IMG/VR virus record: IMGVR_UViG_2778261417_000008
Span: 1-33,955 of that record
Length of the DNA stretch: 33,955 bases
Reading direction: 5' to 3' (one strand)
Origin: a virus
Taxonomy: Duplodnaviria; Heunggongvirae; Uroviricota; Caudoviricetes
Of the stretch, positions 1,912 through 32,049 are shown piece after piece. Every line of letters begins with the position of its first letter. Position 1 is the stretch's first letter. The notes beneath the pieces were generated by a model. The model was not told where the DNA came from, did not search any database, and was given only the letters and a program-made list of their open reading frames with translations. The position numbers and the translations under genes were made by a program.

Positions 1912-2913
1912 TTAAGGCTTCGGCTTTTTATCGAGGCTCTTTCTAAGGATATGCCCAATCATCCTGTCGAGTTCTTCCTGTAGCTCTTTTGAAAGTCGAT
2001 TAAACTCATAAGAAAATGCACGGCCTTTCACGCGCTTCCTTGCAAAGCGATCCTTGTCCTCAAATTTCCATAATTCAGTAACTACGGACTTATCTTTAGA
2101 ACCTTTATCCGTGAGTAGTGAGGCTTCCTTTGTTATCAAGCGCAGGATTTTATTTTTAACTTCATCTTCGGCCATTTCTTCAATGGATAAGATGTCGTTT
2201 ATTTCCGGGGATATGTTTTGAATAAGCTGATCAAACTCTAAATTCTTGTTCCCCATTTCGTCGCCAACAGCACAAAGCGTTTTGTAGTCCGAAAAGGTTA
2301 ATTCCGACTGCACAGGGAAAAGGGCGACTAATTCTTCCGGAGCACTCGCTGCCTGGAGAGCACGCGTGACCTTCGCCTGAGACAGCCCTTCTTTGGCTGC
2401 AATATCCTTCTGACTCATCCCATCATTTTTCATTCGCATCAAACGCAGACCTATTTCTCGAATGCTGTGCTGCAATGCTGTCTGAACGTCTTTCGCTAAA
2501 TTTTGCGCTTCCTGAACGCTGATCTCCTGGTCCGTGACTAAAACCCGCAACCCTACGTTCTCTAAGATGGCAGAAGCTCGACGCCGGGAACCATCCAAAA
2601 TTTCAATTTTCCCTGTAGCCCGTCTAACACCTATTGCAGGGTAAAATTGCTGATGCTTAATAGTGCTTCGGATACTTTTTAATGATTTTGGCGTAAGAGA
2701 TGCCTGGTCACGCCCGTTGTTATGCTGATCAACAAAGGTATCGCTTTCTACCTGGTTTGGAGGTATTACCTCTTCAATAAATGTGGCCTGGCGACCAGTT
2801 GATAACTTGAATACCTGCTCGACTCGATCGCCAGAGGCTGAAGAACTATCAAATCCGCTTAATATTGAAGGATTAAGGGTTCGCCCAATTGTTGGTCTGT
2901 TTTTCTTTGACAT
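1912..2913 (-). CDS. parB: ParB partition protein (P1 type, 333 aa)
   Basis: Length and sequence match P1 ParB as I recall it; sits between parA and parS. Confidence 0.93.
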   Translation of the reverse strand: MSKKNRPTIGRTLNPSILSGFDSSSASGDRVEQVFKLSTGRQATFIEEVIPPNQVESDTFVDQHNNGRDQASLTPKSLKSIRSTIKHQQFYPAIGVRRATGKIEILDGSRRRASAILENVGLRVLVTDQEISVQEAQNLAKDVQTALQHSIREIGLRLMRMKNDGMSQKDIAAKEGLSQAKVTRALQAASAPEELVALFPVQSELTFSDYKTLCAVGDEMGNKNLEFDQLIQNISPEINDILSIEEMAEDEVKNKILRLITKEASLLTDKGSKDKSVVTELWKFEDKDRFARKRVKGRAFSYEFNRLSKELQEELDRMIGHILRKSLDKKPKP

Positions 2914-2929
2914 GGGGGTTTCTTACTCC

Positions 2930-4126
2930 TCAGTTAGATCTGATAAATTCAATACGGTCAAAAACTGCTTTAGCAAAATCTTCCGCGGCAATTCGCGCGT
3001 TCTTCAATGCATCAGCACTACCAACATACGTTGCCGGGTTAGCTGAAATAACAGTGTCAAAAGACTCGCCGCAGCGTTCAAAACCGTCAAGGCGAGGGAG
3101 GACGACATCAAGCATATCCCCACCGAACACTTCTTTAGCCAGGCTATGGCAATACTTATGGTCTGCCTTGTTACTCAACTTGGACATAAAACCAATGTTA
3201 GTCGCAAGCTGGCACTCGCAGCCTTCATCCGAAATGAGTTTCACCAACTCAGGAAGGCGGGCAACGTATTTAAGCGATGAGTGGAAATCAACCGTTGCAG
3301 GCGGCAGAGGTGTAAACAGTATATTGGCCGAGGCCAAAGCATTTTTCAGGAAGGCGTCAAGGTGAGGACCACTATCAACGAGGATAAAGTCATAATCGCT
3401 CTTCAGCTTATCAATCACATTTTCTTTCAGGACTGCATGGATGTTCTGACCCGGTAGATGCTCATTGCACAGCTCTCTCCAATCGGATGCAATAAAGGCA
3501 TCGTCAATCGACGCAGGCATAACGTCAACCCCAGGTACAACAGAAGGAACAATAAACTCCTCTAACAGCTCTTCACGGCTTACATTCTGCAACATAGCCT
3601 GTGCAGATGTTGCGTTTACGATACCAATAGAGTGTTTATGGCTTAAAAACATCGTTGCTGAAGATTGCGGATCAAGGTCAATAACCAGAATCCTTAAATC
3701 TTCCATCAGAAGATGAGGGTGAGCACGCATTGCATGCGCCAGAGAAACCGTCGATACAGTTTTTGACACACCGCCTTTAAGATTGGAGATGAAAATCACA
3801 TACGCTTCGCTGTAGCGATCCCGGTATTTTGGCACTCCGCGATGTTCATATATGTCAATGATGTTCTGAATTGACATCGCATATTTCATTGAAGAGCCAG
3901 CAGGGCGTTTATCGAAAACATAACCCTTTTCTTCCATTTCACTCACGGCATAGTCAACGTTCGCTCGAGTCAGTAGAGGCAATTTTGCCAGTGCCGCTTT
4001 CGCATAGACCTGGTAAAACTCGTTCGCGTGTAGCTCATCCTTTTGCAACTGTACTTGTTCAGTCAGAACATTGAGCATTCTGTTTGCTCTTTGAGCAACC
4101 TTGTGAAGCTGGCTGGAATCACTCAT
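2930..4126 (-). CDS. parA: ParA partition ATPase (P1 type, 398 aa)
   Basis: Deviant Walker A motif (NLKGGVSKT); N-terminal extension typical of type Ia ParA; length 398 aa as in P1. Confidence 0.93.
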   Translation of the reverse strand: MSDSSQLHKVAQRANRMLNVLTEQVQLQKDELHANEFYQVYAKAALAKLPLLTRANVDYAVSEMEEKGYVFDKRPAGSSMKYAMSIQNIIDIYEHRGVPKYRDRYSEAYVIFISNLKGGVSKTVSTVSLAHAMRAHPHLLMEDLRILVIDLDPQSSATMFLSHKHSIGIVNATSAQAMLQNVSREELLEEFIVPSVVPGVDVMPASIDDAFIASDWRELCNEHLPGQNIHAVLKENVIDKLKSDYDFILVDSGPHLDAFLKNALASANILFTPLPPATVDFHSSLKYVARLPELVKLISDEGCECQLATNIGFMSKLSNKADHKYCHSLAKEVFGGDMLDVVLPRLDGFERCGESFDTVISANPATYVGSADALKNARIAAEDFAKAVFDRIEFIRSN

Positions 4127-4141
4127 CGAAAGTCATCCTTT

Positions 4142-4176
4142 ATGCTGTATTTTTGAATTTAATTAAAAATGCTGCA
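4142..4176. promoter_or_regulatory. par operon operator: imperfect inverted repeat upstream of parA
   Basis: atgctgtattttt…aaaaatgctgcat palindrome directly upstream of the parA start. Confidence 0.55.
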
Positions 4177-4264
4177 TAAAATAATAATGTATGCGTAGAT
4201 GCTTGTACATAGCATTCTCTGCATGTTTGGTTCATTTTGCACGATTGAGAGTTACAAGGAGGGC

Positions 4265-4287
4265 ACAAAAAAGCCCCGTTCAGGGGC
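4265..4287 (-). terminator. Rho-independent terminator for the gene at 4295-5104
   Basis: Minus strand reads GCCCC-tgaac-GGGGC followed by TTTTTTGT. Confidence 0.7.
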
Positions 4288-4294
4288 ATCAGTG

Positions 4295-5104
4295 TTATTT
4301 GCTAAGAGCAGCGAATAATCGTTCGAAATCGATAGTATCTATAGCACGCGTAAGCGCCGGAAGTTCAGCCTCAAAGTACCCGTGTCGATCGTAAAAGAAG
4401 GGACCGAAGAGCGAGGCATGTTGGATTCTACTTCGCCCCAGCCCGGACACACAGTTAAGCCCATTACCGGCTAAAAGGCTAAAAAACTTCTCTGGATTAT
4501 CGTGGTAAAGCTGGGAATCAATGGTGGCGGTTAACTCTTCCATAGGGAAGCACACCCGCCCTGTATCCCAGGGATATTTAGTCCGAAGCATAAACATTGC
4601 TTTCAGCAATTCACATTGAGCGCGGATCGCGTCCGGTTCATAGCCAGATATGGAGACATAAGCCACGTCCCTCATTCCTGCGTCATCTTTGAAAGTCACG
4701 ATAGAAGTAACATCCAGCTCTTTTTCGAAAGAGCAAGCAGCATCTACTGGACGCTGAAGTAAATCATTCGACTTAATGCGCTCGAGAATCCCTCCCCACA
4801 TATCATTTAGATATTCGATATGAGCCAAAACCTTATCAAGACACTCTCGTGTAAACCATTCAGTATGCCCGCCACCGGCGCTTTTCTCCCACGGCGCATT
4901 CCAGGGGAAAAAGGTTGCGTGTAAAGCCCGCTCAAGATTAACCATTGCCAAACGCGTACCACGATAGACCCGTGAAAGCGCAAAATCGGGACTCACTTGT
5001 AGCCCTTTAAACCGTGCCAATGGACCACATGAAATGCCGATTTTAAAAGTATCTCCGTTCTCTGGCACCAGAACGTAGAGGTAGTGTTGTTTCTCTTCTT
5101 GCAT
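4295..5104 (-). CDS. T5orf172 / GIY-YIG-like domain protein (N-terminal about 100 aa) with an uncharacterised C-terminal domain
   Basis: N-terminus YLYVL…FKIGIS…GHTEWF resembles the T5orf172 family. Standalone gene with its own terminator, between the incA-like iterons and the par operator. Confidence 0.5.
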   Translation of the reverse strand: MQEEKQHYLYVLVPENGDTFKIGISCGPLARFKGLQVSPDFALSRVYRGTRLAMVNLERALHATFFPWNAPWEKSAGGGHTEWFTRECLDKVLAHIEYLNDMWGGILERIKSNDLLQRPVDAACSFEKELDVTSIVTFKDDAGMRDVAYVSISGYEPDAIRAQCELLKAMFMLRTKYPWDTGRVCFPMEELTATIDSQLYHDNPEKFFSLLAGNGLNCVSGLGRSRIQHASLFGPFFYDRHGYFEAELPALTRAIDTIDFERLFAALSK

Positions 5105-6978: not shown

Positions 6979-7106
6979 AAAAATCCCTTTTAGTTACCGC
7001 TGATAGCGCGGTTGTAATCATTAACGTTGCGATTCTTCCTGTTAATCCCCATCAGCATCGTTTCTGAACCGCCCCGGGTTTCCTGGAGAGTGTTTTATCT
7101 GTGAAC

Positions 7107-9849
<2,743 letters not shown>

Positions 9850-10267
9850 CGTAAGTAAAATCAGCCACCCACAGCTGGTCAGGTCGTTCTGCCACGAACT
9901 GACGGTTTACGCGGTCGCCTGCGGCAACGGCTTTCCGGCTGATGGTCGTACGGACCTTTTTACCCCGGAGAACACCGGCAAGTCCCATAACCGCCATGAG
10001 ACGTGCCACAGTGCATCTGGCCACTCTGATACCTTCCCGTAACAACTGACGCCAGACTTTACGCACACCGTATACCTTGTGATTTTCATCGTATACGCGC
10101 TGTATCTCTTTCTTCAGCCAGTCATTGCGCTGCGCACGGGCACTGCGTTTATCCGGATGATGTCGCTGTTGCTGACAGTGGTAATACGTTGACGGGGCAA
10201 TATGTAGTTCACTGCATACCGGTCCGACCCCGTACAGCTTACGCAGCTTATCCAGCAGTGGCATCAC
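9850..10267 (-). CDS. IS3-family transposase OrfB, N-terminal exon (upstream of the intron)
   Basis: …QLWVADFTY is the first D of the DDE motif; the ORF-track frame then reads on into intron sequence. Confidence 0.8.
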
Positions 10268-10590
10268 TTTTTCCAGAGGCGGTCGAACTCCGCCTTCGCA
10301 AAATAAGCGGAAGCCTGGCGAAGGATATCGTTACTGCGGCGCAGTTCACGATTTTCACGTTCCAGCTCTTTCAGACGCTGACGTTCAGCGGTGGTGAGCC
10401 CTCCATCACCGCCCCCGGTATCCCGCTCATGCTGGCGAACCCAGACACGCAGAGTCTCCGGCGTACAGCCAATCTTTGGAGCAATGGAACAAATTGTCGC
10501 CCATTGTGAGTCATATTCGCTCTGACTTTCCAGAACCATACGGACTGCCCGTTGACGGACTTCGGGGGAAAAACGAGTATTTTTAGTCAT
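10264..10590 (-). CDS. IS3-family OrfA (HTH/leucine-zipper transposase subunit), IS629-like
   Basis: 108-aa translation [22 protein letters not shown]…[33 protein letters not shown] matches IS629/IS1203 OrfA from memory. Confidence 0.85.
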
Positions 10591-10644
10591 CCTGTTTACC
10601 TCTTTCTCAGGAAGTTTAGTCTCCAGGATTCCCGGGGCGGTTCA

Positions 10645-17104: not shown

Positions 17105-20100
17105 CTATATTTTTCCGCCTACGCCTTTAAACTTCTCAATAAACGAGACGATTTTCTGGAAAACTGCCTGTTTTTTCGTTTTATATTGCGGATTTAACGG
17201 ACTAAGTTTTGGTAATGTTTCGTTTAATTCTGTGCCATTTTCGGTGGCATATTCGCGTTTTAAAGACGTGCGAATATAGCGTTTTGCTGCATCTTCATTG
17301 AGATTTTCTTCTTTTATCAATGCTTCTGCTTCACGTTGCTGTTCGCGTTGAGCAAACGTAAAGAATGCGTCAATGATGCTGGCTTTGTCCGGTAAATCAT
17401 CCAGGTTCGTTTGCTGAATAAAATCGACCACCAGGCCCTCTTTAGCACGGTTTCCCAGGCTTGAACGAATTAAGCGTTTGACCTCTTCGATCATTTCGCC
17501 CTTGCCTTTATTTTGTCTGTTGTGTTCGAAAATCAGTCCAAGGATATAATCCAGGTTTATTTCCTGAGACTTCAGCAAATCGACCTCAAAAACTACGTCA
17601 TCCCAGTCAGTGGTTGATTTCTCTTTTTTCTCAGCTTCTTTCTCACGGCGCTGCCAGTCGCGAATATCGTTATAGGCAGAACGATAATCCTGAATCTTGC
17701 GATCAGCAGGGAGACGAATTGTTTGCAATTCAGCGAACTTTTCATCATCCACATAATGTTCTGCTTTGAATTTTTCTACCGCAACAGGATCGCTAAGATC
17801 GATTTGTTGCAGGGCTTTTAGCGTGGCAAATTCATCATAGTTTTGCAGGATGTTCTCGGCACGCAGGTATTCGCCAAACAGTTTAACGAAGTCTTTCTTC
17901 TCTTTTTCACTTTCAATACTGGTAGGGTCAGGGAACCGTTGTTCCAGTTCTGAAACTACTGTCATGAAGCCGCGTTTAGCTTCACCTGTAGCAGCATCAG
18001 TAAAGCCTTCCATATACTCTGTATAACTCTTTTCTAACACCACATTTTTGGTGTTTTTGTCACCAAACAGCGTTATGGCATCAATAGTTGAGCGTTCCAG
18101 ATCCCGGAAAGTGACGATATTACCGAAGGTTTTAGTGGCGTCATAAATGCGGTTGGTGCGGGAAAATGCCTGCATCAGGCCGTGATAACGTAAGTTTTTA
18201 TCGACGAATAGCGTGTTCAATGTTGGAGCATCGAAGCCGGTTAAGAACATCCCCACGACAATTAGCAGATCGATATCCTGATTTTTAACCCGCTGGGCTA
18301 AATCACGATAGTAGTTCTGAAAACCGTTACTGTCGGTGCTAAAGTTAGTTTTAAAATGGCTGTTATATTCACGAATTGCAGCGTCCAGAAACTCTTTAGC
18401 ACTGCTGTCCATTGCGCTGGTATCAAAAGTTTCATCGGAAATTTCACCAATGGCATTTTGTTCTTCATTGGCGGCAAAGGAGAAGATTGTCGCAATACGC
18501 AGCGGTTTATAGGTAGCCGATTTATTAGCGGCTTCTTCTTGTAACCGTTTAAACGTCGCATAATAGGCTTTCGCGGCATCCACGCTGCTCACTGCCAACA
18601 TAGCATTAAAACCTTTTGAGCCAGGGAAGGTACGGTGGGTTTTCTGGCGGAAATTATTCAGAATATATTGCGTGATTTCCTGAATACGCATGGGATGAAG
18701 AAACGCCTGCTGATTTTCAGCCGCACTCAGTTTTTTCTCGTCAGTTTCTGTCTCTAAAGACTTAAACTGTGGCCGCACATCGTTGTAGTCCACCTTGAAT
18801 TTGAGCACTTTTTCGTCACGAATCGCATCGGTAATTACATACGAATGCAATTCACGACCAAATACGCTGGCGGTTGTTTCTGAGCCTAAGGCGTTTTCCG
18901 GGAAAATAGGGGTGCCGGTAAAACCAAACTGATAATAGCGTTTGAATTTCTTCTTCAGGTTTTTCTGCGCTTCTCCAAACTGGCTGCGGTGGCATTCATC
19001 AAATATAAACACCACTTGCTGATTATATACAGGCAGATCGCTTTCTGCTTTCATCAGGTTATTGAGTTTCTGAATAGTAGTGACGATAATTTTGTTATCG
19101 TCCTTATCCAGATTTCGTTTAAGGCCTGCGGTATTTTCCGAGCCGTTGACGCTGTCTGGCGAAAAACGCTGATATTCCTTCATGGTCTGGTAATCGAGGT
19201 CTTTCCTGTCGACCACAAAGAAGACTTTATCAATAAAGTCCAGCTCTGTTGCCAGACGCGCGGCTTTAAAGCTGGTGAGGGTTTTACCAGAACCGGTAGT
19301 GTGCCAGATATACCCACCGCTTTCCGGTTTTGACCAGTTCTTCGCTGTAAAGGAACTCTTAATTTTCCACAGAATGCGCTCGGTGGCGGCAATCTGGTAC
19401 GGTCGCATTACCAGTAGTGTCTGACTGCTGTCAAAAACGCTGTAGTTCACCAGAACATTAAGCAGAGTATGTTTCTGGAAAAAGGTGGCGGTAAAGTCTT
19501 TGAGGTCTTTAATCAGCGTATTGTCTGATTTCGCCCAGTTCATGGTGAAGTCAAAACTGTTTTTATCGCGCTTTGTCGTGTTGGCAAAATAACGGGTATC
19601 AGTGCCGTTGGAAATGACGAACAGCTGCAGATACTTAAACAGGGAATTTTCGCTGTTAAAACTCTCTTTACTGTAACGATGTATCTGGTTGAAAGCCTCA
19701 CGAATCGCCACGCCGCGTTTTTTCAGTTCGATTTGTACCAGCGGTAAGCCATTAACCAGGATAGTTACGTCATAACGGTTAGCGTGAGAACCCGCCTGTT
19801 CAAACTGCTGGATAATCTGCACCTTATTGCGCATGAGATTCTTTTTATCTATCAAATAGATGTTCTCAAGACGCTCGTCATCAAAAATAAAGTCGCAAAT
19901 ATAGTCGATATGGATTTTACGGGTCTTATCCAGAATGCCATCGCTCGGGTTATCCAGATACTGCTCCGTGAAACGCCGCCACTCGCTGTCATTAAACACC
20001 ACACCATTGAGGTTCTGAAGCTGTTCCCGAACATTGGCCAGCATCGCCGACTGTGATTTTACGGATATAAATTCATAGCCCTGATTCCGTAGGTCCTGTA

Positions 20101-20221
20101 TCAGTTCGCGTTCCAGGTCCGATTCGCTCTGGTAGCTGTCGCCTGTTGGCTCAGCTTTGATGTACTTATCAAGAACGATAAAGTTATTGGATTCAGCAAT
20201 GGTGTGTGTCTGATGAGTCAT
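17105..20221 (-). CDS. hsdR: Type I restriction enzyme R subunit (HsdR), type IC / EcoR124-like
   Basis: 1038 aa; helicase motifs ([22 protein letters not shown]); length matches EcoR124 HsdR as I recall it. Confidence 0.9.
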
Positions 20222-20342: not shown

Positions 20343-21557
20343 TTAATTACTGACAGTTTCAGGTTTCGGGAAACTGAACAGTAAATCACGATAGTACTCG
20401 TATTGTTTCTGGCGCAACTCGATTTCACGCGGAAGACCTTCGGTGATGGAGTTAGTCAGTGTGTCGAATTTGTCGAGTATTTCGACAATTCGTTGTTGTT
20501 CATTGATGTTAGGAACCGGAATTTTAAATGAAAATAATTTTTTACTGTCAATAGAAGCTACGGACCCTCCTGTCTTTTTCGCTGCTCGCAGAATATCACT
20601 CCCCCTAGACCCAATCATATGATAAATATATTTAACCAAGATGTTTTCATGAGGAATGACTGCTTTCATATCTTGATTGAGCGTAGCAGGTACTTTTATT
20701 AATGCACTTGGTAATACTTTATCCAATATGCTTGAGCGAACAACGATTGCAATCGAGTTTGCTGGAATCAGTTTTGTTGACGATTGTAGAACAGCCTCCT
20801 CAGTTATATAGTCTTCCGAAGAGTCTACAAGTGTTCGGCCCATATCTTTCGGGGAAATCCATGGAATGCTTCCATTTTCCCAAAATTCAATTTTATTTTT
20901 TGATGGTGTCCCTCCCCCATACCATTTTCCGATCTCTCCCAAAGTCTTCCACTCAACCTCACCCTCTTTAAAACTCAACAACTGGTCGCGATAGTAGTTG
21001 TACTGTTTTTTACGCATGTTAAGCTCAGCGGTAAGCTCAGCGGTAAGTGCAGTAAATTTATCCAGAATCCGAACGATTTCAGACTGGATGGCAAGGGATT
21101 TTTCCGGATTATCCGGGCAGGGGATTGGGATTTTTTTTTGAGAATAATTACTAATCCATTGGCGTTTATGGTCTCCCTCTGCGAATTCACTTGGTAATGT
21201 ATTGAGCCAATAGTAAACATATTTCAGTAAGGTTTTATTATCATCACATGATGTAACCATTTTCATGGCCGATGATTTTGCCTTAAAGTCAAAATCCACC
21301 CATTTATTAGCGGTGGTGAAATCATCAAAAATTATTACAGGTGCCTTTGATGCCTGATAAATACCATGAGTCTCATTTGTGTATCCAAGAATAAATGTTT
21401 TTCCGGCAGTAAGAACCGGTATGGTATATGTGTCGTGATAATCTTTTGCTTTTACCAAATACTTTGTTGGCTGTTCATATTTGGTTATTTCCCCCAATGG
21501 CAACCACTCAACTTCAACCCCATCCAGCAATTTTTCCAGATAACTCATCTCGCTCAT
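20343..21557 (-). CDS. hsdS: Type I restriction-modification specificity subunit (HsdS), EcoR124-like
   Basis: 404 aa with two target-recognition domains around a central conserved region containing TAELTAEL; 4-nt overlap with hsdM. Confidence 0.9.
21021..21044 (-). repeat. Tandem 12-bp repeat (2 copies, encoding TAEL-TAEL) in the hsdS central spacer region
   Basis: aagctcagcggt aagctcagcggt on the plus strand; the next 12 nt (21045-21056) are a degenerate third unit. Confidence 0.85.
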
Positions 21558-23116
21558 TTCTGCACCTCGCAGCCTTCAATTTCAGCCACAATCGCATCAA
21601 TATCTTTGCGCAACTGGTCGATTTTGCTGACCGTGGTTTTCAGCTCAGCATTCAGCTCAGCAATATCGATAATTTCGCGGTTATCTTTCGCTTCCACATA
21701 GCTGCTCACCGACAGGTTATAGTCATTAGCAACAACGGTCTCAAACGCGACAGATTTCGCCAGATGAGCAACATCTTCCTTGCTGGCAAATACCTGCATA
21801 ATCTGTTCGATATGGGCATCGGTCAGGATATTGTTGTTAGTCTCTTTTTTGAACAGTTCGCTGGCGTCAATAAACTGAACGTTGGTATCCGTTTTATGTT
21901 TGGACAGAACCAGAATGTTTACTGCAATGGTGGTGCCAAAGAACAGGTTCGGTGCCAGTGAAATTACGGTTTCGACATAGTTATTGTCAATCAGATACTG
22001 ACGGATTTTCTGCTCCGCGCCGCCACGGTAAAAAATACCCGGGAAGCAAACAATCGCAGCACGACCTTTGGCAGAAAGATAGTTCAGCGCATGTAATACA
22101 AACGCAAAGTCAGCTTTGGATTTGGGGGCCAGAACGCCAGCCGGGGCAAAACGTTCATCGTTAATCAGCGTCGGGTCATCGCTGCCAATCCATTTCACCG
22201 AATACGGCGGGTTAGAAACGATGGCATCAAACGGTTTTTCATCTCTGAAGTGTGGCTCAGTCAGTGTATTACCCAGCTTGATATCAAACTTGTCGTAGTT
22301 GATGTTGTGCAAAAACATGTTCATACGTGCCAGGTTATAGGTTGTATGGTTGATTTCCTGACCAAAAAAGCCTTCTTCGATGATATGGTCATCAAACTGT
22401 TTTTTAGCCTGCAACAACAGCGAACCGGATCCTGCTGCCGGGTCGTAGATTTTGTTAACGTGGGTCTGCCCGTGCATAGCCAGTTGTGCAATCAGCTTAG
22501 AGACGTGTTGCGGTGTAAAGAACTCGCCGCCTGACTTACCGGCATTCGCCGCATAGTTAGAAATCAGGAACTCATAGGCGTCACCGAACAGGTCAATCTG
22601 ATGTTCGTTGAAGTCACCAAGTTTTAACCCTTCAACCCCTTTCAGAACCGCAGCCAGGCGGGCATTTTTATCTTTAACGGTGTTACCCAGGCGGTTACTG
22701 GTGGTATCGAAATCAGCAAACAAACCTTTGATGTCAGCTTCTGAAGGATAACCGTAAGCAGAACTTTCGATAGCAACGAAGATGCTGTTTAAATCTGCAT
22801 TCAGTCTGTCATTAGTATTTGCTTTCGCAGCTACGTTGCAGAAAAGCTGACTGGGGTAGATGAAGTAGCCTTTAGTTTTGATGGCATCGTCTTTAATGTC
22901 ATCAGTAATTACGCTGTCATCCAGTTTCGCATAACAGATACTGTCATCACCGGCTTCAATATAACTGGAAAAATTTTCGCTGATAAAACGGTAGAAAAGT
23001 GCGCCCAGAACGTATTGCTTAAAATCCCATCCATCGACCGAACCCCTGACATCGTTAGCAATTTGCCAGATTTGACGATGAAGCTCTGCACGTTGTTGAA
23101 TACTTGTCATTTTCAT
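21554..23116 (-). CDS. hsdM: Type I restriction-modification methyltransferase subunit (HsdM), EcoR124-like
   Basis: 520 aa; N6-adenine methyltransferase NPPY-type motif (VSNPPYS) and AdoMet-binding region. Confidence 0.9.
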
Positions 23117-23292: not shown

Positions 23293-23514
23293 ATGCAATC
23301 CATTAACTTCCGTACCGCGCGCGGCAACCTTTCTGAAGTGCTCAACAATGTTGAGGCCGGGGAAGAGGTTGAAATCACCCGCAGAGGCCGTGAGCCAGCA
23401 GTAATTGTCAGCAAGGCTACTTTCGAAGCCTACAAAAAAGCGGCGCTGGATGCTGAATTTGCATCCCTGTTTGACACCCTGGACTCCACCAACAAGGAAC
23501 TGGTTAACCGATAA
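23293..23514 (+). CDS. phd: Phd antitoxin
   Basis: 73-aa translation matches P1 Phd from memory (MQSINFRTARGNLSEVLNNVEAGEEVEITRRGREPAVIV…). Confidence 0.93.
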   Translation: MQSINFRTARGNLSEVLNNVEAGEEVEITRRGREPAVIVSKATFEAYKKAALDAEFASLFDTLDSTNKELVNR

Positions 23515-23894
23515 TGAGGCATATATCACCGGAAGAACTTATTGCGCTTCATGATGCGAATATAAACTGCTACGGCGGCTTGCCGGGAATGTCAGATCCG
23601 GGTAGGGCAGAGGCCATTATCGGGAGAGTTCAGGCCAGAGTTGCCTACGAAGAGATCACCGACCTTTTCGAAGTCTCCGCCACCTACCTGGTGGCTACAG
23701 CGAGAGGGCATATATTCAATGATGCCAATAAGCGTACCGCGCTAAACAGCGCGCTGCTATTTCTACGCCGTAACGGGGTGCAGGTATTTGATTCACCTGA
23801 ACTGGCAGACCTTACTGTAGGCGCTGCGACTGGCGAGATATCTGTATCTTCTGTCGCCGACACGTTACGTAGATTGTATGGTTCTGCGGAGTAG
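23514..23894 (+). CDS. doc: Doc toxin (Fic-fold kinase)
   Basis: 126 aa; overlaps the phd stop; matches P1 Doc from memory. Confidence 0.93.
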
Positions 23895-24105: not shown

Positions 24106-25149
24106 GTGAAAGCCGTAATTACTCCCTTTGTACAAAAAGAGCTTGGCGTCGCCACATTCAAAGTGGATCAGGAAGTCAGAAAGCTGGTGGAGGCTGGCCG
24201 TAAATTTATTATGGAGCCGGTGCCGCGTGAGTTAATCGAGCACATGGACGACGGCCTCGTTGTTTCCGAGCAAACTATGGCAACAAATGAGGCGTTGCAG
24301 CCGTTTTTTAACAGCGATGAACTGTTTCGCCGTATTGGTGGAATTGACGCGCTGGTGGCGTGGTTGCGCAGGAAAGAGGGGCAATGCCAGGCCGCAGATC
24401 GTAGCTGGTGTGACAACCATATTGTCCACGCAGAACGAGACAATAGCGCGGTGTTGTTGTGCTGGCATCACGATAACCATTACCGGATGCGTGGTTTTAA
24501 TGAGCTGAAAGAAACGCTGCATAATAATCGCGTTAACTGGATACTGGATGTCGCCCGTCAGGAAATGGGGCTTTCAGATGGCCATGATTTAAGTATTCAG
24601 GAACTGTGCTGGTGGGCTTTCATGCGCAACATGATGCACCTGATGCCGGAAGAAGTTTGCCGTATATCAATAAATAAGATGAAAGCCGCAACGCAGGATA
24701 GCGGACCTCTGAAAGAGGCGGATATTCGCCCGTATGACGATCGCGCTACAGCATATGTTCAGATGATGGAAGAACGCGCCGCGCCGATGCGTGCAAAAGT
24801 ATGCCCTGTGGATGTTGACTCCGACCCTGGCATGGCGCATTTCAAAATACCAAAACTGCAATCGCTAAAATTACCTGAGTACATGGACTTTGTTGCTTCC
24901 CGTCCATGCTGTGGGTGTGGAGCGGCGGGAGCTGGCGCTCACATTACGCCTTATATCGTTCGTCATAGTCGATTATGCGCGCATGACATTTACGCAATTC
25001 CTCTGTGCCAGTCATGCCAGCGTGATATTGAGCGTGACCGCGATAATTGGGAGAAGACGCACGGTAGGCTGGCGATGCATCAACGATTGTTCTTTGATTA
25101 CGCGCTTGGAGTCGGCGCTATCACAAGTCACTCGTCGAGCGTTAGATAA
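24106..25149 (+). CDS. Hypothetical phage protein with Cys/His-rich C-terminal motif (possible zinc-binding or HNH-like)
   Basis: 347 aa; CWHHDNHY and [12 protein letters not shown]…C.H…CQSCQ clusters. Confidence 0.5.
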
Positions 25150-25150
25150 A

Positions 25151-25167
25151 ATTGCTCTAATGTATTG
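25151..25167 (+). promoter_or_regulatory. C1 operator-like site (ATTGCTCTAATGTATTG)
   Basis: Matches the C1 operator consensus in 13 of 17 positions; lies between the 347-aa ORF and the packaging genes. Confidence 0.55.
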
Positions 25168-25237
25168 CCATTTCTTTAATCGAGGGTATTATATTCCACG
25201 TTGATTAGTTGACATGGGCTAATCAGTAGGTGACAGG

Positions 25238-25435
25238 ATGTTACTTAACTGGCAGGGACGCCACTTCATGGAAATAAATCACTCACGAATAACATCGTAC
25301 GAGATTGCGGATTACATGATCCGCACTAAATCTCTTCTATCAGCGAAAGAACTCGCAGCAATTCTTGAAAAGGAATACCCGCATCTGGATGTCGATAAGC
25401 GCGATGTTTATCTGCGCTTACGAACGAAAGCGTGA
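25238..25435 (+). CDS. Putative terminase small-subunit-like N-terminal segment (65-aa ORF)
   Basis: Helix-turn-helix-like small ORF upstream of the large terminase; overlaps the next ORF in a different frame. Confidence 0.35.
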
Positions 25436-25820
25436 AAATAACTGGTCAGTGCTGGAAGCAGCTGAATTCATCGAGGCGCATGGCGGAAAAGTGCCGCCCC
25501 TGATGCTGGAGCAAATCAAAGCCGATCTGCGTGCTCCTAAGACCAATACCGATGATGAGGAAAGGCAAACAGCCGTCGGTGGCCCTTCTCTTGAAGATCT
25601 GGACAAAGTTGCGCGAGAACGGGCCGCCAACCGCCGCGCCGATGCCGCATTGTGGATTGAGCAGCGTAGGGAAGAAATCGCCGATATCGTTGATACAGGC
25701 GGTTATGGAGATGTTGATACTGAAGGTGTATCAAACGACCCATGGCTGGAACAAGACCTGGACGAAGACGAGGAGGAAGACGAAGAAGTTACCCGCAAGC
25801 TATACGGGGATGATGATTAA
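25365..25820 (+). CDS. Putative terminase small-subunit-like C-terminal segment with acidic tail
   Basis: Acidic tail (…[11 protein letters not shown]…); stop overlaps the start of the large terminase (ATGATTAATGG). True start may be the GTG at 25458. Confidence 0.4.
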
Positions 25821-27304
25821 TGGCCAGAAGTTGCGTAACGGATCCACGTTGGCGCGAGCTGGTGGCGCTATATCGTTATGACTGGATTGCTGCCGCTGAT
25901 GTTTTGTTCGGCAAAACACCTACCTGGCAGCAGGATCTGATTATTGAGTCTGTGCAGGAACAGGGTAGCAAGACATCTGTTTCGTCTGGTCACGGTACCG
26001 GGAAATCAGACATGACTTCTATCATGATCATGTTGTTCATAATCATGTATCCCGGTGCCCGCGCCATTATCGTTGCGAACAAAATTCAGCAGGTAATGAC
26101 CGGTATATTCAAGTACATCAAGATAAACTGGGCTACTGCCACCAGCCGTTTTCCATGGCTTGCTGATTATTTTGTTCTGACAGAAACCGCTTTCTATGAG
26201 GTTACTGGTAAAGGTGTATGGACTGTAGTACCGAAGGGCTTTCGTCTGGGAAGTGAAGAAGCTCTCGCCGGTGAACACGCAGATCATCTTCTGTATATTA
26301 TCGATGAAGCCTCCGGTGTCAGTGATAGAGCTTTCGGTATCATCACCGGTGCTCTTACCGGACAGGATAACCGCATCTTATTGCTGTCACAGCCTACACG
26401 CCCAAGCGGCTATTTCTACGATACACACCATAAACTGGCCAAGCGTCCTGGTAACCCTGATGGCGTTTATACGGCGATCACGCTTAACAGTGAGGAATCA
26501 CCGTTGGTAACGCCAGCATTTATCAAAATGAAGCTGGCGGAGTACGGCGGGCGTGATAACCCTATGTACATGATTAAGGTACGCGGCCTATTCCCTAAAT
26601 CACAGGATGGCTTCCTTCTTGGACGTGATGAGGTTGAACGTGCAACGCGGCGGAAAGTCAAGATTGCCAAAGGATGGGGCTGGCTTGCATGTGTGGACGT
26701 TGCTGGTGGTACGGGACGGGATAAGTCCGTTATCAATATCATGATGGTGTCCGGCCAGCGAAATAAACGCCGTGTAATCAACTATCGAATGCTGGAATAC
26801 ACAGACGTTACAGAAACGCAGCTTGCCGCCAAAATTTTCGCAGAATGTAATCCTGAGCGATTCCCAAATATCACCATAGCGATAGACGGCGATGGCCTGG
26901 GTAAAGCAACGGCGGATCTGATGTACGAGTATTATGGTATTACCGTACAGCGTATACGCTGGGGTAAAAAGATGCATAGCCGTGAAGATAAGAGCCTGTA
27001 CTTTGATAAACGTGCTTATGCCAACGTTCAAGCCGCAGAGGCCGTAAAATCTGGTCGTATGAGACTGGATAAGGGTAATGAAACTATTGAGGAAGCGTCG
27101 AAAATCCCTGTAGGGATTAACTCCGCAGGTCAATGGAAGGTGATGAGTAAGGAGGATATGAAGAAAAAACTCAACCTGCACTCACCAGACCATTGGGATA
27201 CATATTGTTTCGCTATGCTGGCGGATTATGTTCCCCAGGATGAAGTGCTTAGCGTCGAAGACGAAGCGCAGGTTGATGAAGCTCTGGCATGGCTTAATGA
27301 ATGA
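25820..27304 (+). CDS. Terminase large subunit (PacB-like), 494 aa
   Basis: Walker A SGHGTGKS and Walker [12 protein letters not shown]; position just upstream of the immunity regions as for P1 pacB. Confidence 0.7.
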
Positions 27305-27307
27305 ATA

Positions 27308-27324
27308 TTTGCTCTAATAAATTG
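27308..27324 (+). promoter_or_regulatory. C1 operator (Op51-like) in front of the c4-icd-ant operon
   Basis: TTTGCTCTAATAAATTG. Confidence 0.65.
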
Positions 27325-27504
27325 TGTTTTTTAACTACCGATGTTACATTGAGCCTGACCTCTTGCGCCTTGAGGCATTTTCGGTTTATGCTTATCAGGC
27401 ACCTCATTAAAACGGGTGCCGGGATTGGCCTCCCGCTTAAGTCTAAGGCGATACAGACGCCGCTCGCGTCTTTTTTTTGTATCGGCGTACACGCACACCT
27501 CTAC

Positions 27505-27580
27505 AATGGTGGGCTGTATGGGGCTACCTTCGGGTAGGCTGGTTACCTTGGACGCCAGTAAGGCCAACTCCGTACAGTCC
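27505..27580 (+). ncRNA. c4: Candidate c4 antisense RNA (immI repressor RNA); boundaries approximate
   Basis: tRNA-like closing stem (ggctgtatgg / ccgtacagtcc) followed by ACCGCC. Internal CCUUGGACG (27545-27553) is complementary, with one G-U, to CGUCUAAGG at the icd ribosome-binding site (27624-27632) and to an upstream copy at 27441-27449. Confidence 0.45.
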
Positions 27581-27643
27581 ACCGCCAGCAAGATTGGTCT
27601 CTTCTGCGGTGGTTACATACCAACGTCTAAGGAGGCTGCCAAT

Positions 27644-27865
27644 ATGGCTACTATCCCTACCCCAACTCATCCTGAATTTATCTGGCGCTTTTACTCCTGC
27701 CAAAAACGTCACTATCACTTCGTTATTGCACCGACAGAAGATGAGGCCCGCTCTCAGCTTCCTGACGCCCCATGTATTTTCTCTGCCCGTTTTTCCACTG
27801 ATTCACGCAATTCTCTCAGTTACTGGTGCCTCCCTGTTAACGCTTCTGCTCAGGAGGGACTATGA
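27644..27865 (+). CDS. icd: Icd (interference with cell division), 73 aa, translationally coupled to ant
   Basis: ATG at 27644 with AAGGAGG upstream; stop overlaps the ant start (ATGA). Confidence 0.6.
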   Translation: MATIPTPTHPEFIWRFYSCQKRHYHFVIAPTEDEARSQLPDAPCIFSARFSTDSRNSLSYWCLPVNASAQEGL

Positions 27866-28980
27866 GAACGTCATTAGTCACCCGTGAAGAGATGATCGAG
27901 GCAATTGAACAGCACACTGCCTGTATCAGTACCAGGGATATACCAGGCGTTATTGCCAACTACTTCATGATCACCAAACAACTTTACCGGAGAAAGGACA
28001 AGAACGCGGTTCACCGTATCCTGTTGTCTGATATCCGCGAATACCTGCTCGAACAGGGTCATCTGAATTACGCAACCGCCGCAGCCGAAGCACGCAAGGA
28101 GGCACACAGAATGAAAGCAACTAACGTTAAATCAGAAAAAATTCATGCACCTTCAGTTCAAGAATCGGAGCTGGTGGTTGTTCAGAATCAGTCTGATGAA
28201 ATTCCCGTTCTGGAATGGCAGGGAGTGCGTGTAGTGACAACCGAGACTCTTGCTAGAGGGTATGGGACAGAAACAATCCGTATTCGCCAAAATCATCATG
28301 AGAACAAAGTACGCTTTGTTGAAGGGAAGCACTTTTTCAAAGTTGAAGGAGAATCATTGCGCGAGTTGAAGCACAGAGTAGCTTTAAACTACTCTGTAAA
28401 AATTGCTCGCAATGTTCGCTCACTCACCCTCTGGACAGAACGCGGCGCAGCCCGCCACGCTAAAATGCTCGAAACCGATCAGGCATGGGCATTCTTTGAA
28501 AAACTGGAAGACAGCTACTTCCGACAAAAAGAACAGCAACCGATCGCAATCCCCCAGACGCTTCCTGAAGCCCTACGCCTGGCTGCCGAACTGGCTGAAC
28601 AAAAGCAACTTCTGGAACAGAAAGCCCACCAGCTAAATCAGCAGCTGGTGGCCGCCGCTCCTAAAGTCGATTTTGCCGACCGGGTATCAGTAGCTAAAGG
28701 GATCCTGATTGGGAATTTTGCAAAGGTTGTTGGACTTAAACAAAACGCGCTGTTTGTCTGGTTACGGGAGAACGGCATCCTGATAGCGTCCGGTGGACGT
28801 AAAAATGTGCCGTTCCAGCAGTACATCAACGCGGGGTATTTCACGGTGAAAGAAGTGGTGCTGGATGATGAAGATGGCTACCAGATACGGTTGACGCCTC
28901 AATTAACGGGTAAAGGCCAGCAGTGGTTGACGCGTAAACTGCTCGATGCTGGCTTGTTAAAACCGGTGGCGGCTGAATAA
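27862..28980 (+). CDS. ant: Antirepressor Ant (Ant1, 372 aa; an in-frame internal start near codon 84 would give Ant2)
   Basis: ORF6N/Bro-N-like N-terminal region and KilA-C/ANT-type C-terminal domain; sizes fit the reported 42 and 32 kDa P1 Ant1/Ant2. Confidence 0.7.
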   Translation: MRTSLVTREEMIEAIEQHTACISTRDIPGVIANYFMITKQLYRRKDKNAVHRILLSDIREYLLEQGHLNYATAAAEARKEAHRMKATNVKSEKIHAPSVQESELVVVQNQSDEIPVLEWQGVRVVTTETLARGYGTETIRIRQNHHENKVRFVEGKHFFKVEGESLRELKHRVALNYSVKIARNVRSLTLWTERGAARHAKMLETDQAWAFFEKLEDSYFRQKEQQPIAIPQTLPEALRLAAELAEQKQLLEQKAHQLNQQLVAAAPKVDFADRVSVAKGILIGNFAKVVGLKQNALFVWLRENGILIASGGRKNVPFQQYINAGYFTVKEVVLDDEDGYQIRLTPQLTGKGQQWLTRKLLDAGLLKPVAAE

Positions 28981-30614: not shown

Positions 30615-30695
30615 ACATGATCAATTTACCTGTAAATCCATACAGTTCAATACCTTATCAGGTCAAATAGTGATCACTTGATCATTTGATCAAGG
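30615..30695. promoter_or_regulatory. GATC (Dam) cluster in the cre upstream region: four GATC sites, three of them TGATCA
   Basis: GATC at 30619, 30672, 30680 and 30688. Lies between loxP and cre, not inside a packaging gene. Confidence 0.5.
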
Positions 30696-31017: not shown

Positions 31018-32049
31018 ATGTCCAATTTACTGACCGTACACCAAAATTTGCCTGCATTACCGGTCGATGCAACGAGTGATGAGGTTCGCAAGAACCTGAT
31101 GGACATGTTCAGGGATCGCCAGGCGTTTTCTGAGCATACCTGGAAAATGCTTCTGTCCGTTTGCCGGTCGTGGGCGGCATGGTGCAAGTTGAATAACCGG
31201 AAATGGTTTCCCGCAGAACCTGAAGATGTTCGCGATTATCTTCTATATCTTCAGGCGCGCGGTCTGGCAGTAAAAACTATCCAGCAACATTTGGGCCAGC
31301 TAAACATGCTTCATCGTCGGTCCGGGCTGCCACGACCAAGTGACAGCAATGCTGTTTCACTGGTCATGCGACGGATCCGAAAAGAAAACGTTGATGCCGG
31401 TGAGCGTGCAAAACAGGCGCTGGCGTTCGAACGCACTGATTTCGACCTGGTTCGTTCACTCATGGAAAATAGTGAGCGCTGCCAGGATATACGTAATCTG
31501 GCATTTCTGGGGATTGCTTATAACACCCTGTTACGTATAGCCGAAATTTCCAGGATCAGGGTTAAAGATATCTCACGTACTGACGGTGGGAGAATGTTAA
31601 TCCATATTGGCAGAACGAAAACGCTGGTTAGCACCGCTGGTGTAGAGAAGGCACTTAGCCTAGGGGTAACTAAACTGGTTGAGCGATGGATTTCTGTCTC
31701 TGGTGTAGCTGATGATCCGAATAACTACCTGTTTTGCCGCGTCAGAAAAAATGGTGTTGCCGCGCCATCATCCACCAGCCAGCTATCAACTCGCGCCCTG
31801 GAAGGGATTTTTGAAGCAACTCATCGATTGATTTACGGCGCTAAGGATGACTCTGGTCAGAGATACCTGGCCTGGTCTGGACACAGTGCCCGTGTCGGAG
31901 CCGCGCGAGATATGGCCCGCGCCGGAGTTTCAATACCGGAGATCATGCAAGCTGGTGGCTGGACCAACGTAAATATTGTCATGAACTATATCCGTAACCT
32001 GGATAGTGAAACAGGGGCAATGGTGCGCCTGCTGGAAGATGGCGATTAG
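31018..32049 (+). CDS. cre: Cre tyrosine site-specific recombinase (343 aa)
   Basis: Translation matches Cre (MSNLLTVHQNLPALPVDATSDEVRKNLMDMFRDRQAFSEHTWKMLLSVCRSWAAWCKL…), with catalytic R-H-R-Y region at the C-terminus. Confidence 0.98.
   Translation: MSNLLTVHQNLPALPVDATSDEVRKNLMDMFRDRQAFSEHTWKMLLSVCRSWAAWCKLNNRKWFPAEPEDVRDYLLYLQARGLAVKTIQQHLGQLNMLHRRSGLPRPSDSNAVSLVMRRIRKENVDAGERAKQALAFERTDFDLVRSLMENSERCQDIRNLAFLGIAYNTLLRIAEISRIRVKDISRTDGGRMLIHIGRTKTLVSTAGVEKALSLGVTKLVERWISVSGVADDPNNYLFCRVRKNGVAAPSSTSQLSTRALEGIFEATHRLIYGAKDDSGQRYLAWSGHSARVGAARDMARAGVSIPEIMQAGGWTNVNIVMNYIRNLDSETGAMVRLLEDGD

Follow-up and report, generated by a model that had tools for sequence, protein, structure and literature searches.

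How does a P1-like element come to carry a complete terminase large-subunit gene directly behind what looks like a small-subunit gene broken into two overlapping reading frames? The question is raised by IMG/VR record IMGVR_UViG_2778261417_000008, a stretch of 33,955 nucleotides (nts) analyzed here at its full length and called the window, which is the complete contig NOSH01000043.1 of the draft assembly GCA_002521985.1. An initial annotation of positions 24106-27304 had correctly recognized an intact large terminase of 494 amino acids (aa) with Walker A and B motifs, and had taken the two short open reading frames (ORFs) before it for one split small-subunit gene. The genes here form the lpa-pacA-pacB block of a P1-like (Punavirus) plasmid prophage from the RCS47/SJ46 sub-lineage. 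The two overlapping ORFs are where they were said to be, at 25238-25435 and 25365-25820, but they are the stumps of two genes, lpa and pacA, rather than halves of one; that the late activator gene lpa had also been destroyed was not seen at the time. Very probably, this is a crippled P1-like plasmid prophage in which a 1,147-base-pair (bp) deletion by illegitimate recombination joined lpa codon 61 to pacA codon 266.

The gene order frames this answer. On the + strand, phd-doc-pdcA-pdcB is followed by ORFs of 65, 151, and 494 aa, matching the order phd-doc-pdcA-pdcB-lpa-pacA-pacB of the P1 annotation. Position 24106, at which the packaging region had been made to begin, belongs to pdcB, which is no packaging gene. 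The features from that point to the end of pacB are as follows.

24106-25149, + strand: pdcB (DUF968 / HNH-like), intact; Pfam DUF968 at E 3e-50, collinear with P1 pdcB
25151-25167, + strand: C1 operator Olpa (Op94), ATTGCTCTAATGTATTG; a 3-mismatch match to the consensus, at the position of the annotated P1 Olpa
25165-25192, + strand: C1-controlled sigma-70 promoter Plpa, TTGCCA-16-TATTAT; from a promoter scan, coinciding with the P1 Plpa annotation
25238-25435, + strand: ORF of 65 aa; Lpa residues 1-61, then RTKA and a stop
25238-25420, + strand: lpa remnant, codons 1-61 of 150, running on out of frame as RTKA and a stop to 25435
25365-25820, + strand: ORF of 151 aa with a mechanical TTG start, in another frame than the 65-aa ORF and overlapping it by 71 nt
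25419-25422: deletion junction 25420/25421, with TA microhomology at 25419-25420; from alignment to the four reference loci named below
25422-25820, + strand: pacA remnant, codons 266-397 and stop; without native start, promoter, or pac site
25820-27304, + strand: pacB, terminase large (ATPase/nuclease) subunit, intact, 494 aa

The deletion becomes apparent as soon as the region is set against its relatives. A megablast search with 24106-27304 found matches in 22 phage and 1,150 plasmid records; in 16 phage and 535 plasmid records that cover the query, the alignment falls into two pieces spanning 4,343-4,348 bp, compared to 3,199 bp in the window. The breakpoints were mapped to the base against the phage-plasmid vB_EcoM-673R5 (ON470615.2; L001), P1 itself (AF234172 / NC_005856; L002), and the plasmids pB20105_2 (NZ_CP142927.1; L005) and pRHB28-C11_2 (CP057381.1; L011). 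Homology stops at window position 25420 and restarts at 25421, and the absent 1,147 bp correspond to 2816-3962 of vB_EcoM-673R5 and 21224-22370 of pB20105_2 (about 2816-3964 of P1). This interval holds lpa codons 62-150, the late promoter LPpac, pacA codons 1-265, and the entire pac site. Since 1,147 is not a multiple of 3, the two stumps lie out of register, giving the appearance of a frameshift; of the earlier proposal that the gene was frameshifted or decayed, only decay survives. Re-sequencing of 25230-25830, once proposed to rule out an indel, would restore no single ORF, because the lesion is a 1,147-bp deletion. Searches with blastn and tblastn did not find the missing segment elsewhere in the window, which contains nothing like PacA 1-265 or Lpa 62-150 (best tblastn E-value 1.1).

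The flanks of the deletion are nearly the same as in intact relatives. The phage-plasmids RCS47, SJ46, and vB_EcoM-673R5 and the plasmids pRHB28-C11_2 and pB20105_2 are 98-99.7% identical to the region in DNA; on the left the window differs from pRHB28-C11_2 at 1 of 1313 nt, and on the right from vB_EcoM-673R5 and pB20105_2 at 0 of 1878 nt. Where these RCS47/SJ46-type relatives carry an intact 453-nt lpa and a 1,194-nt pacA with its pac hexamers, the window has neither. The likeness to P1 is of a different grade on the two sides: the left flank is 97.6% identical in DNA and the gene order is the same through Olpa/Plpa-lpa to pacA-pacB, whereas pacB is only ~83% identical, because the window belongs to the RCS47/SJ46 sub-lineage. 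Intact elements are the majority, with 554 of 611 P1-like plasmids in PLSDB (~90%) keeping at least 80% of the deleted segment, and pacA ranks with the best conserved genes in a set of 77 P1-like phage-plasmids (PMC9603915). By its sequence, the window belongs to the defective minority of P1-like plasmids.

Two other accounts of the breakpoints were discarded. The BLAST pieces overlap by 16 nt, as if a 16-bp direct repeat lay at the breakpoints, but inspection reduces this to TA plus an imperfect similarity of 13/17. Nor does the breakpoint mark a mosaic switch from P1-type to RCS47-type sequence; the window begins to diverge from P1 at least ~90 bp to the right of it, and the two are unrelated. 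In the intact pacA, the right breakpoint abuts a tandem 10-bp direct repeat, AAGCTGGCAT-TGTT-AAGCTGGCAT, which lies within the deleted part (pB20105_2 22345-22370).

The stumps themselves are well preserved as far as they go. The Lpa stump is identical to P1 Lpa (150 aa) at 61 of 61 residues, and it covers positions 1-49 of the 131 of Pfam PF25716 BPP1_LPA (P1 Lpa covers 1-130) and positions 1-63 of the 148 of phrog_1704, rather than the ~150 aa and whole profile of a full-length Lpa. The 151-aa ORF opens with 19 codons of lpa in the wrong frame, and its last 132 codons encode PacA 266-397. This part aligns to P1 PacA from residue 264/266 to 397 and to positions 278-402 of the 417 of phrog_1711, annotated as "terminase"; no Pfam family matched the stump, and the assignment came from PHROGs. 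It falls well short of the full 397-aa PacA, and the weak Pfam HTH_23/HTH_28 region at residues 7-44 of the P1 protein is among what was deleted. Among the reference loci, pacA of vB_EcoM-673R5 (3171-4362) is annotated as two genes, Pac1 and Pac2, and its translation changes frame twice when compared to P1 and pB20105_2, owing either to a sequencing error or to a genuinely frameshifted gene.

The packaging site went with the 5′ part of pacA. In P1, pac is a 161-bp sequence inside pacA with seven TGATCA/G hexamers (4 + 3) bearing Dam GATC sites (PMC10028697). Both vB_EcoM-673R5 and P1 carry TGATCA/G at 3364, 3371, 3383, and 3398 and again at 3494, 3506, 3517, and 3545, that is, 8 sites within 200 bp. 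The initial annotation was right that no such cluster exists here: within 24106-27304 there is a single TGATCA, at 26025. The alignment with pacA of P1-like elements that it had proposed places the hexamer cluster inside the missing segment, and none had been overlooked in the window; the IHF site (P1 3426-3438) and the cleavage points (3446-3455) also lie within the missing interval. The sole small hexamer cluster in the window consists of four TGATCA/G-type Dam sites at 30618-30690, upstream of cre. We do not take it for a relocated pac, a judgment made from its position alone and without comparison to relatives.

Upstream of the scar lie the operator and promoter of lpa. The C1 operator-like site reported at 25151 is borne out as Olpa, and the window holds 10 C1-operator matches where 0.19 would be expected by chance. 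No terminator-like site was found between Plpa and pacB. As the sequence now reads, Plpa and its operator would lead straight into the stumps and pacB.

What, then, of pacB itself? The protein has recognizable Walker motifs, GHGTGKS (A-like, aa 57-63) and LYIIDE (B-like, aa 158-163), matches phrog_2 "terminase large subunit" at E 3e-40, and is identical to P1 PacB at 439 of 494 residues (89%), all as expected of a TerL; no Pfam family matched at E <= 0.01. From 25423 to 27300, the stretch that includes it, the window does not differ at all from the intact vB_EcoM-673R5 and pB20105_2. This preservation, together with the fact that the rest of the genome lies outside the contig, is what could be said for the alternative that the retained PacB works with another DNA-recognition subunit on another pac or cos site, and that packaging is functional. 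The earlier suggestion of a different small subunit and pac finds no support, as the window offers no candidate by homology: nothing in it resembles the lost parts of PacA and Lpa, and the only hexamer cluster is the one upstream of cre. The loss of lpa would silence the late genes regardless, and the tail/baseplate block is displaced (see below). There are also the other contigs with the same junction. Their pacB is intact in three, the window's own contig counted; it is wholly gone in five (L013, L016, L017, L019, and L020, which lack window 25792-27534), has an internal deletion of 26136-26556 in L015, and is cut by an insertion sequence (IS) at 26296 in L021. Such decay is what one would predict for a pacB left without a use by the loss of lpa, pacA, and pac. 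Lost or broken as it is in these sister contigs, pacB is therefore not under selection, which counts against functional packaging by another route, and we consider that alternative very improbable. With a deletion in lpa and pacA, by contrast, pacB is a stranded gene, undegraded as yet here.

The same contigs bear on whether the junction is real. A small indel or a collapsed assembly could in principle split one intact small-subunit gene, and it is true that the window comes from a draft assembly and that assemblers struggle at this very point, as shown by a group of contigs that end at the breakpoint (P0014, below). However, the gap to intact relatives is 1,147 bp and not an indel, and the breakpoints are flanked by no repeat longer than 2 nt that could collapse. 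A second IMG/VR contig (L004) has the 37-nt junction without a change; aligned over 10.5 kb, the two show 99.87% identity, counting 13 mismatches and 1 gap. On 18 contigs from NCBI and SRA assemblies of independent samples, the 65-aa stump protein was read in unaltered form; these contigs share the junction and differ from one another by single-nucleotide polymorphisms (SNPs) and secondary deletions, and an identical stump has been deposited under Salmonella enterica. The exact window junction had 0 matches in PLSDB plasmids, complete Escherichia coli genomes, GTDB species representatives, and JGI metagenomes. Comparable deletions stand in complete plasmid records, CP010179 and CP061751 for the sister lineage described next and AP025216.1 and CP145664.1 for the allele P0003. 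An artefact is accordingly a shade less credible even than a substitute packaging system; judged from these comparisons, the junction is genuine and inherited.

The sister deletion lineage consists of the E. coli plasmids CP010179.1, CP061751.1, and p22AR0118B, whose lpa-pacA deletion was annotated by PGAP as two pseudogene fragments. Its right breakpoint falls within 1 bp of the window's, at a TAC microhomology. It differs in that its left breakpoint lies 50 bp further into lpa and an IS2 sits in pacB. Because its flanking haplotype differs from the window's, at 31/1313 positions on the left and by 16 SNPs on the right, the deletion is an independent event. For the same reason the window allele could not be retained as a 49-bp secondary deletion of a CP010179-type allele: the flanking SNPs mark different backgrounds. 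The sister junction had 0 matches in IMG/VR and GTDB.

A programmed frameshift had also been suggested. In this account, a programmed +1 ribosomal frameshift in the 25365-25435 overlap would yield a functional Lpa(1-61)-PacA(266-397) fusion, and the ORFs do share 71 nt, with their frames offset by one base. The overlap was made by the deletion and exists only in its carriers; more than 550 relatives carry separate full-length genes, so that there is no conserved overlap. The fusion would lack the N-terminal two-thirds of PacA, the C-terminal 89 residues of Lpa, and pac, and in other alleles broken at the same point on the left, lpa runs into unrelated frames or into non-coding DNA. The idea can be set aside with hardly a reservation. 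Equally negligible is an engineered P1 derivative such as a pac-deleted helper or vector: pac-disabled P1 lysogens have been built for phagemid work (PMC10028697), but the junction carries no marker, FRT/lox scar, or vector sequence, the backbone is a natural RCS47/SJ46-type one with type I restriction-modification (R-M) and IS elements, the allele occurs in many unrelated samples, and the microhomology is typical of spontaneous events.

The deletion in lpa and pacA being the preferred explanation, the position of its left end deserves attention, for it is shared. The breakpoint lies at the foot of a DNA hairpin.

25396-25420 (pB20105_2 21199-21223): DNA hairpin with a 10-bp stem, TAAGCGCGAT-GTTT-ATC(T)GCGCTTA, in lpa codons 53-61; its 3′ foot is the left breakpoint

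The hairpin folds with a dG of -8.8 kcal/mol (z -4.0), and 0 of 200 shuffled sequences fold as well. Its sequence is identical in P1, and the breakpoint, here called X, is its final paired base. In pacA, ~110 nt to the left of the AAGCTGGCAT tandem repeat, a hairpin arm recurs in inverted orientation as a perfect 10-nt copy, GCGCAGATAA. By-eye comparison of the hairpin with lox, cix/gix, the integron attC core, and IS200/IS605 target motifs gave no convincing match.

Deletion alleles were collected from the truncated Lpa proteins in the 90%-identity cluster of the 65-aa stump, and their DNA was mapped on the intact pB20105_2. Many members of the cluster are truncated Lpa proteins diverging after the same residue, L61. 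At least six deletion alleles share the one left breakpoint X (pB20105_2 21223, window 25420), and four more have theirs within ~50 nt, some of them, P0003 and P0004 for example, being very widespread; the loci concerned are L003, L022-L035, L061, L071, and L073. The alleles are listed below in pB20105_2 coordinates, with the microhomology where there is one on record.

P0001 (the window's allele): left end X, right end 22371, in pacA codon 266; TA; 18 contigs read
P0006: left end X, right end 22753, in the last codons of pacA; TA; 8 contigs read
P0004: left end X, right end 23433, inside pacB; CGCTTAA; 322 index blocks
P0015: left end X, right end 24022, near the pacB end; TAA; 51 index blocks
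P0013: left end X, right end 24610, beyond pacB; TA; 73 index blocks
P0005: left end X, landing inside ant; 45 index blocks
P0003: compound deletion, left end 21201 at the hairpin 5′ foot; 1,211 index blocks; complete-genome plasmid records AP025216.1 and CP145664.1
L073 (IMG/VR): deletion with left end 21238
CP010179 lineage: deletion with left end 21273
P0012: 13-bp deletion across X, as deduced from the protein sequence

By the haplotypes of their left flanks, these alleles sort into three or four backgrounds that lie 17-44 SNPs per 1.2 kb apart. Because the backgrounds differ, and because the window's own flanks match intact plasmids (1/1313 and 0/1878), these are repeated events and not one ancestral scar. 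In a sample of 119 IMG/VR loci that contain the lpa start, which is free of the length bias of the protein cluster, 86 have intact lpa and pacA, and the left ends of all 4 deletions lie at 21201-21238, whereas the 5 IS or cargo insertions are scattered elsewhere. Contigs of the P0014 stump (93 index blocks) are nearly all shorter than 5 kb, and both of the two inspected, the metagenome scaffolds L036 and L037, end at X+2. This suggests branching of the assembly graph, with intact and deleted forms, or several deletion variants, together in the samples.

Slipped mispairing or a template switch during replication could produce such scars. In this model, a newly made strand whose end reads ...ATCTGCGCTTA would fold back on itself, leave the template, and re-prime downstream wherever its final 2-7 nt find a match. 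Imperfect homology to the 3′ arm of the hairpin is seen at several of the right-hand partners, for instance ATCACGCTTAA in pacB. [quoted passage not shown] In the literature searched, no description of a deletion hot spot in lpa was found.

A second lesion lies elsewhere in the window. Relative to pB20105_2, position 88,030 is joined to 6,402 with 3.6 kb of foreign DNA between them (window 7067-10641), and ~14.7 kb are skipped, among them five tail/baseplate genes, rdgC, dmt, and tciA. As seen from one contig, the skipped 14.7 kb were either deleted or moved, which is consistent with a defective element. Downstream of pacB, the window carries an isrK-C4-icd-ant module before c1, in contrast to classic P1, which has none between these genes. 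Intact relatives of the sub-lineage carry this immI-like module between pacB and c1 as well, in addition to a canonical immI elsewhere (~33130-34391 in L007). On the minus strand lies a type I R-M system, in which the variable target-recognition regions of hsdS (window 20477-21504) diverge from the closest intact relative while their flanks are 97.5-98% identical. These and the remaining features are the following.

7067-10641: IS3-family element with a group II intron inside
10193-10309, minus strand: ALIL frameshift pseudoknot of the IS3-family element
9785-10267, minus strand: HTH_21 ORF of the IS3-family element
7107-7553, minus strand: rve ORF of the IS3-family element
7670-9193: reverse transcriptase/maturase ORF of the group II intron
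7580-7666: Rfam Intron_gpII
17105-20221, minus strand: hsdR
20343-21557, minus strand: hsdS
21554-23116, minus strand: hsdM
23293-23514, + strand: phd
23514-23894, + strand: doc
27308-27324, + strand: C1 operator-like site just 3′ of pacB, opening the immI-like module
27399-27476: isrK-like RNA
27502-27589: C4 antisense RNA
27644-27865: icd-like ORF
27862-28980: ant, Ant/KilAC antirepressor, 372 aa
29013-29864, minus strand: c1, 283 aa, intact
31018-32049: cre, 343 aa, intact

The backbone is thus that of a P1-like element, collinear, with the C1 repressor and its operators, cre, phd-doc, and a repA/parAB replicon. The lytic gene set is incomplete, to the extent that a 34-kb contig allows it to be assessed: lpa, pacA, and pac are deleted, and the tail/baseplate block and dmt are displaced. 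The plasmid and immunity functions, rep/parA/parB, phd-doc, c1, and cre, are seemingly intact.

The consequences can be read from P1 biology. Lpa is the activator of 11 late promoters in P1. Without it the late promoters would be silent, and without PacA and pac packaging could not start; lpa, pacA, and pacB all score as essential in P1 (PMC10695390). We infer that the element can probably neither run late transcription, nor make particles, nor package itself, and the loss of lpa is a more drastic defect than that of pacA. It would persist as a low-copy plasmid by means of its intact rep/par, phd-doc, cre, and c1. Several considerations weigh against these readings. The functional consequences would follow from P1 genetics, not from this element. 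One 34-kb contig was seen, and a second lpa/pacA/pac could possibly lie elsewhere or on a co-resident P1-like element. The complete identity of pacB to that of intact relatives fits a recent deletion and is no proof of lost function. As for the hairpin, the template switch is deduced from junction anatomy, and the same scars would result from a nuclease directed to the hairpin, with microhomology end joining afterwards.

A defective prophage-plasmid is a known phenomenon, and the window contains no new packaging system, terminase, pac, or frameshift; the recurrent breakpoint at the foot of the hairpin is its one out-of-ordinary feature. The conversion of P1-like phage-plasmids to plasmids by gene loss has been published (Pfeifer and Rocha 2024, PMC10879196). 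The elements in that paper resemble the window in that a P1-like replicon keeps rep/par, phd-doc, and cre and loses phage functions, and they differ in how the loss is described, which is by gene category (lysis, tail, regulators), with no mention in the passages searched of lpa, the terminase genes, or a specific breakpoint. Annotation pipelines will go on calling pseudo-ORFs at the scar, and elements of this kind should not be counted as inducible or transducing when the phage-mediated spread of plasmid cargo is judged. If the hairpin does act as proposed, the sequence that follows ...CTGCGCTTA would be a simple marker, by polymerase chain reaction or by sequence, to distinguish functional from defective P1-like elements in surveillance data, and the conversion of P1-like phage-plasmids into pure plasmids would be partly mutationally predisposed rather than a matter of random decay.

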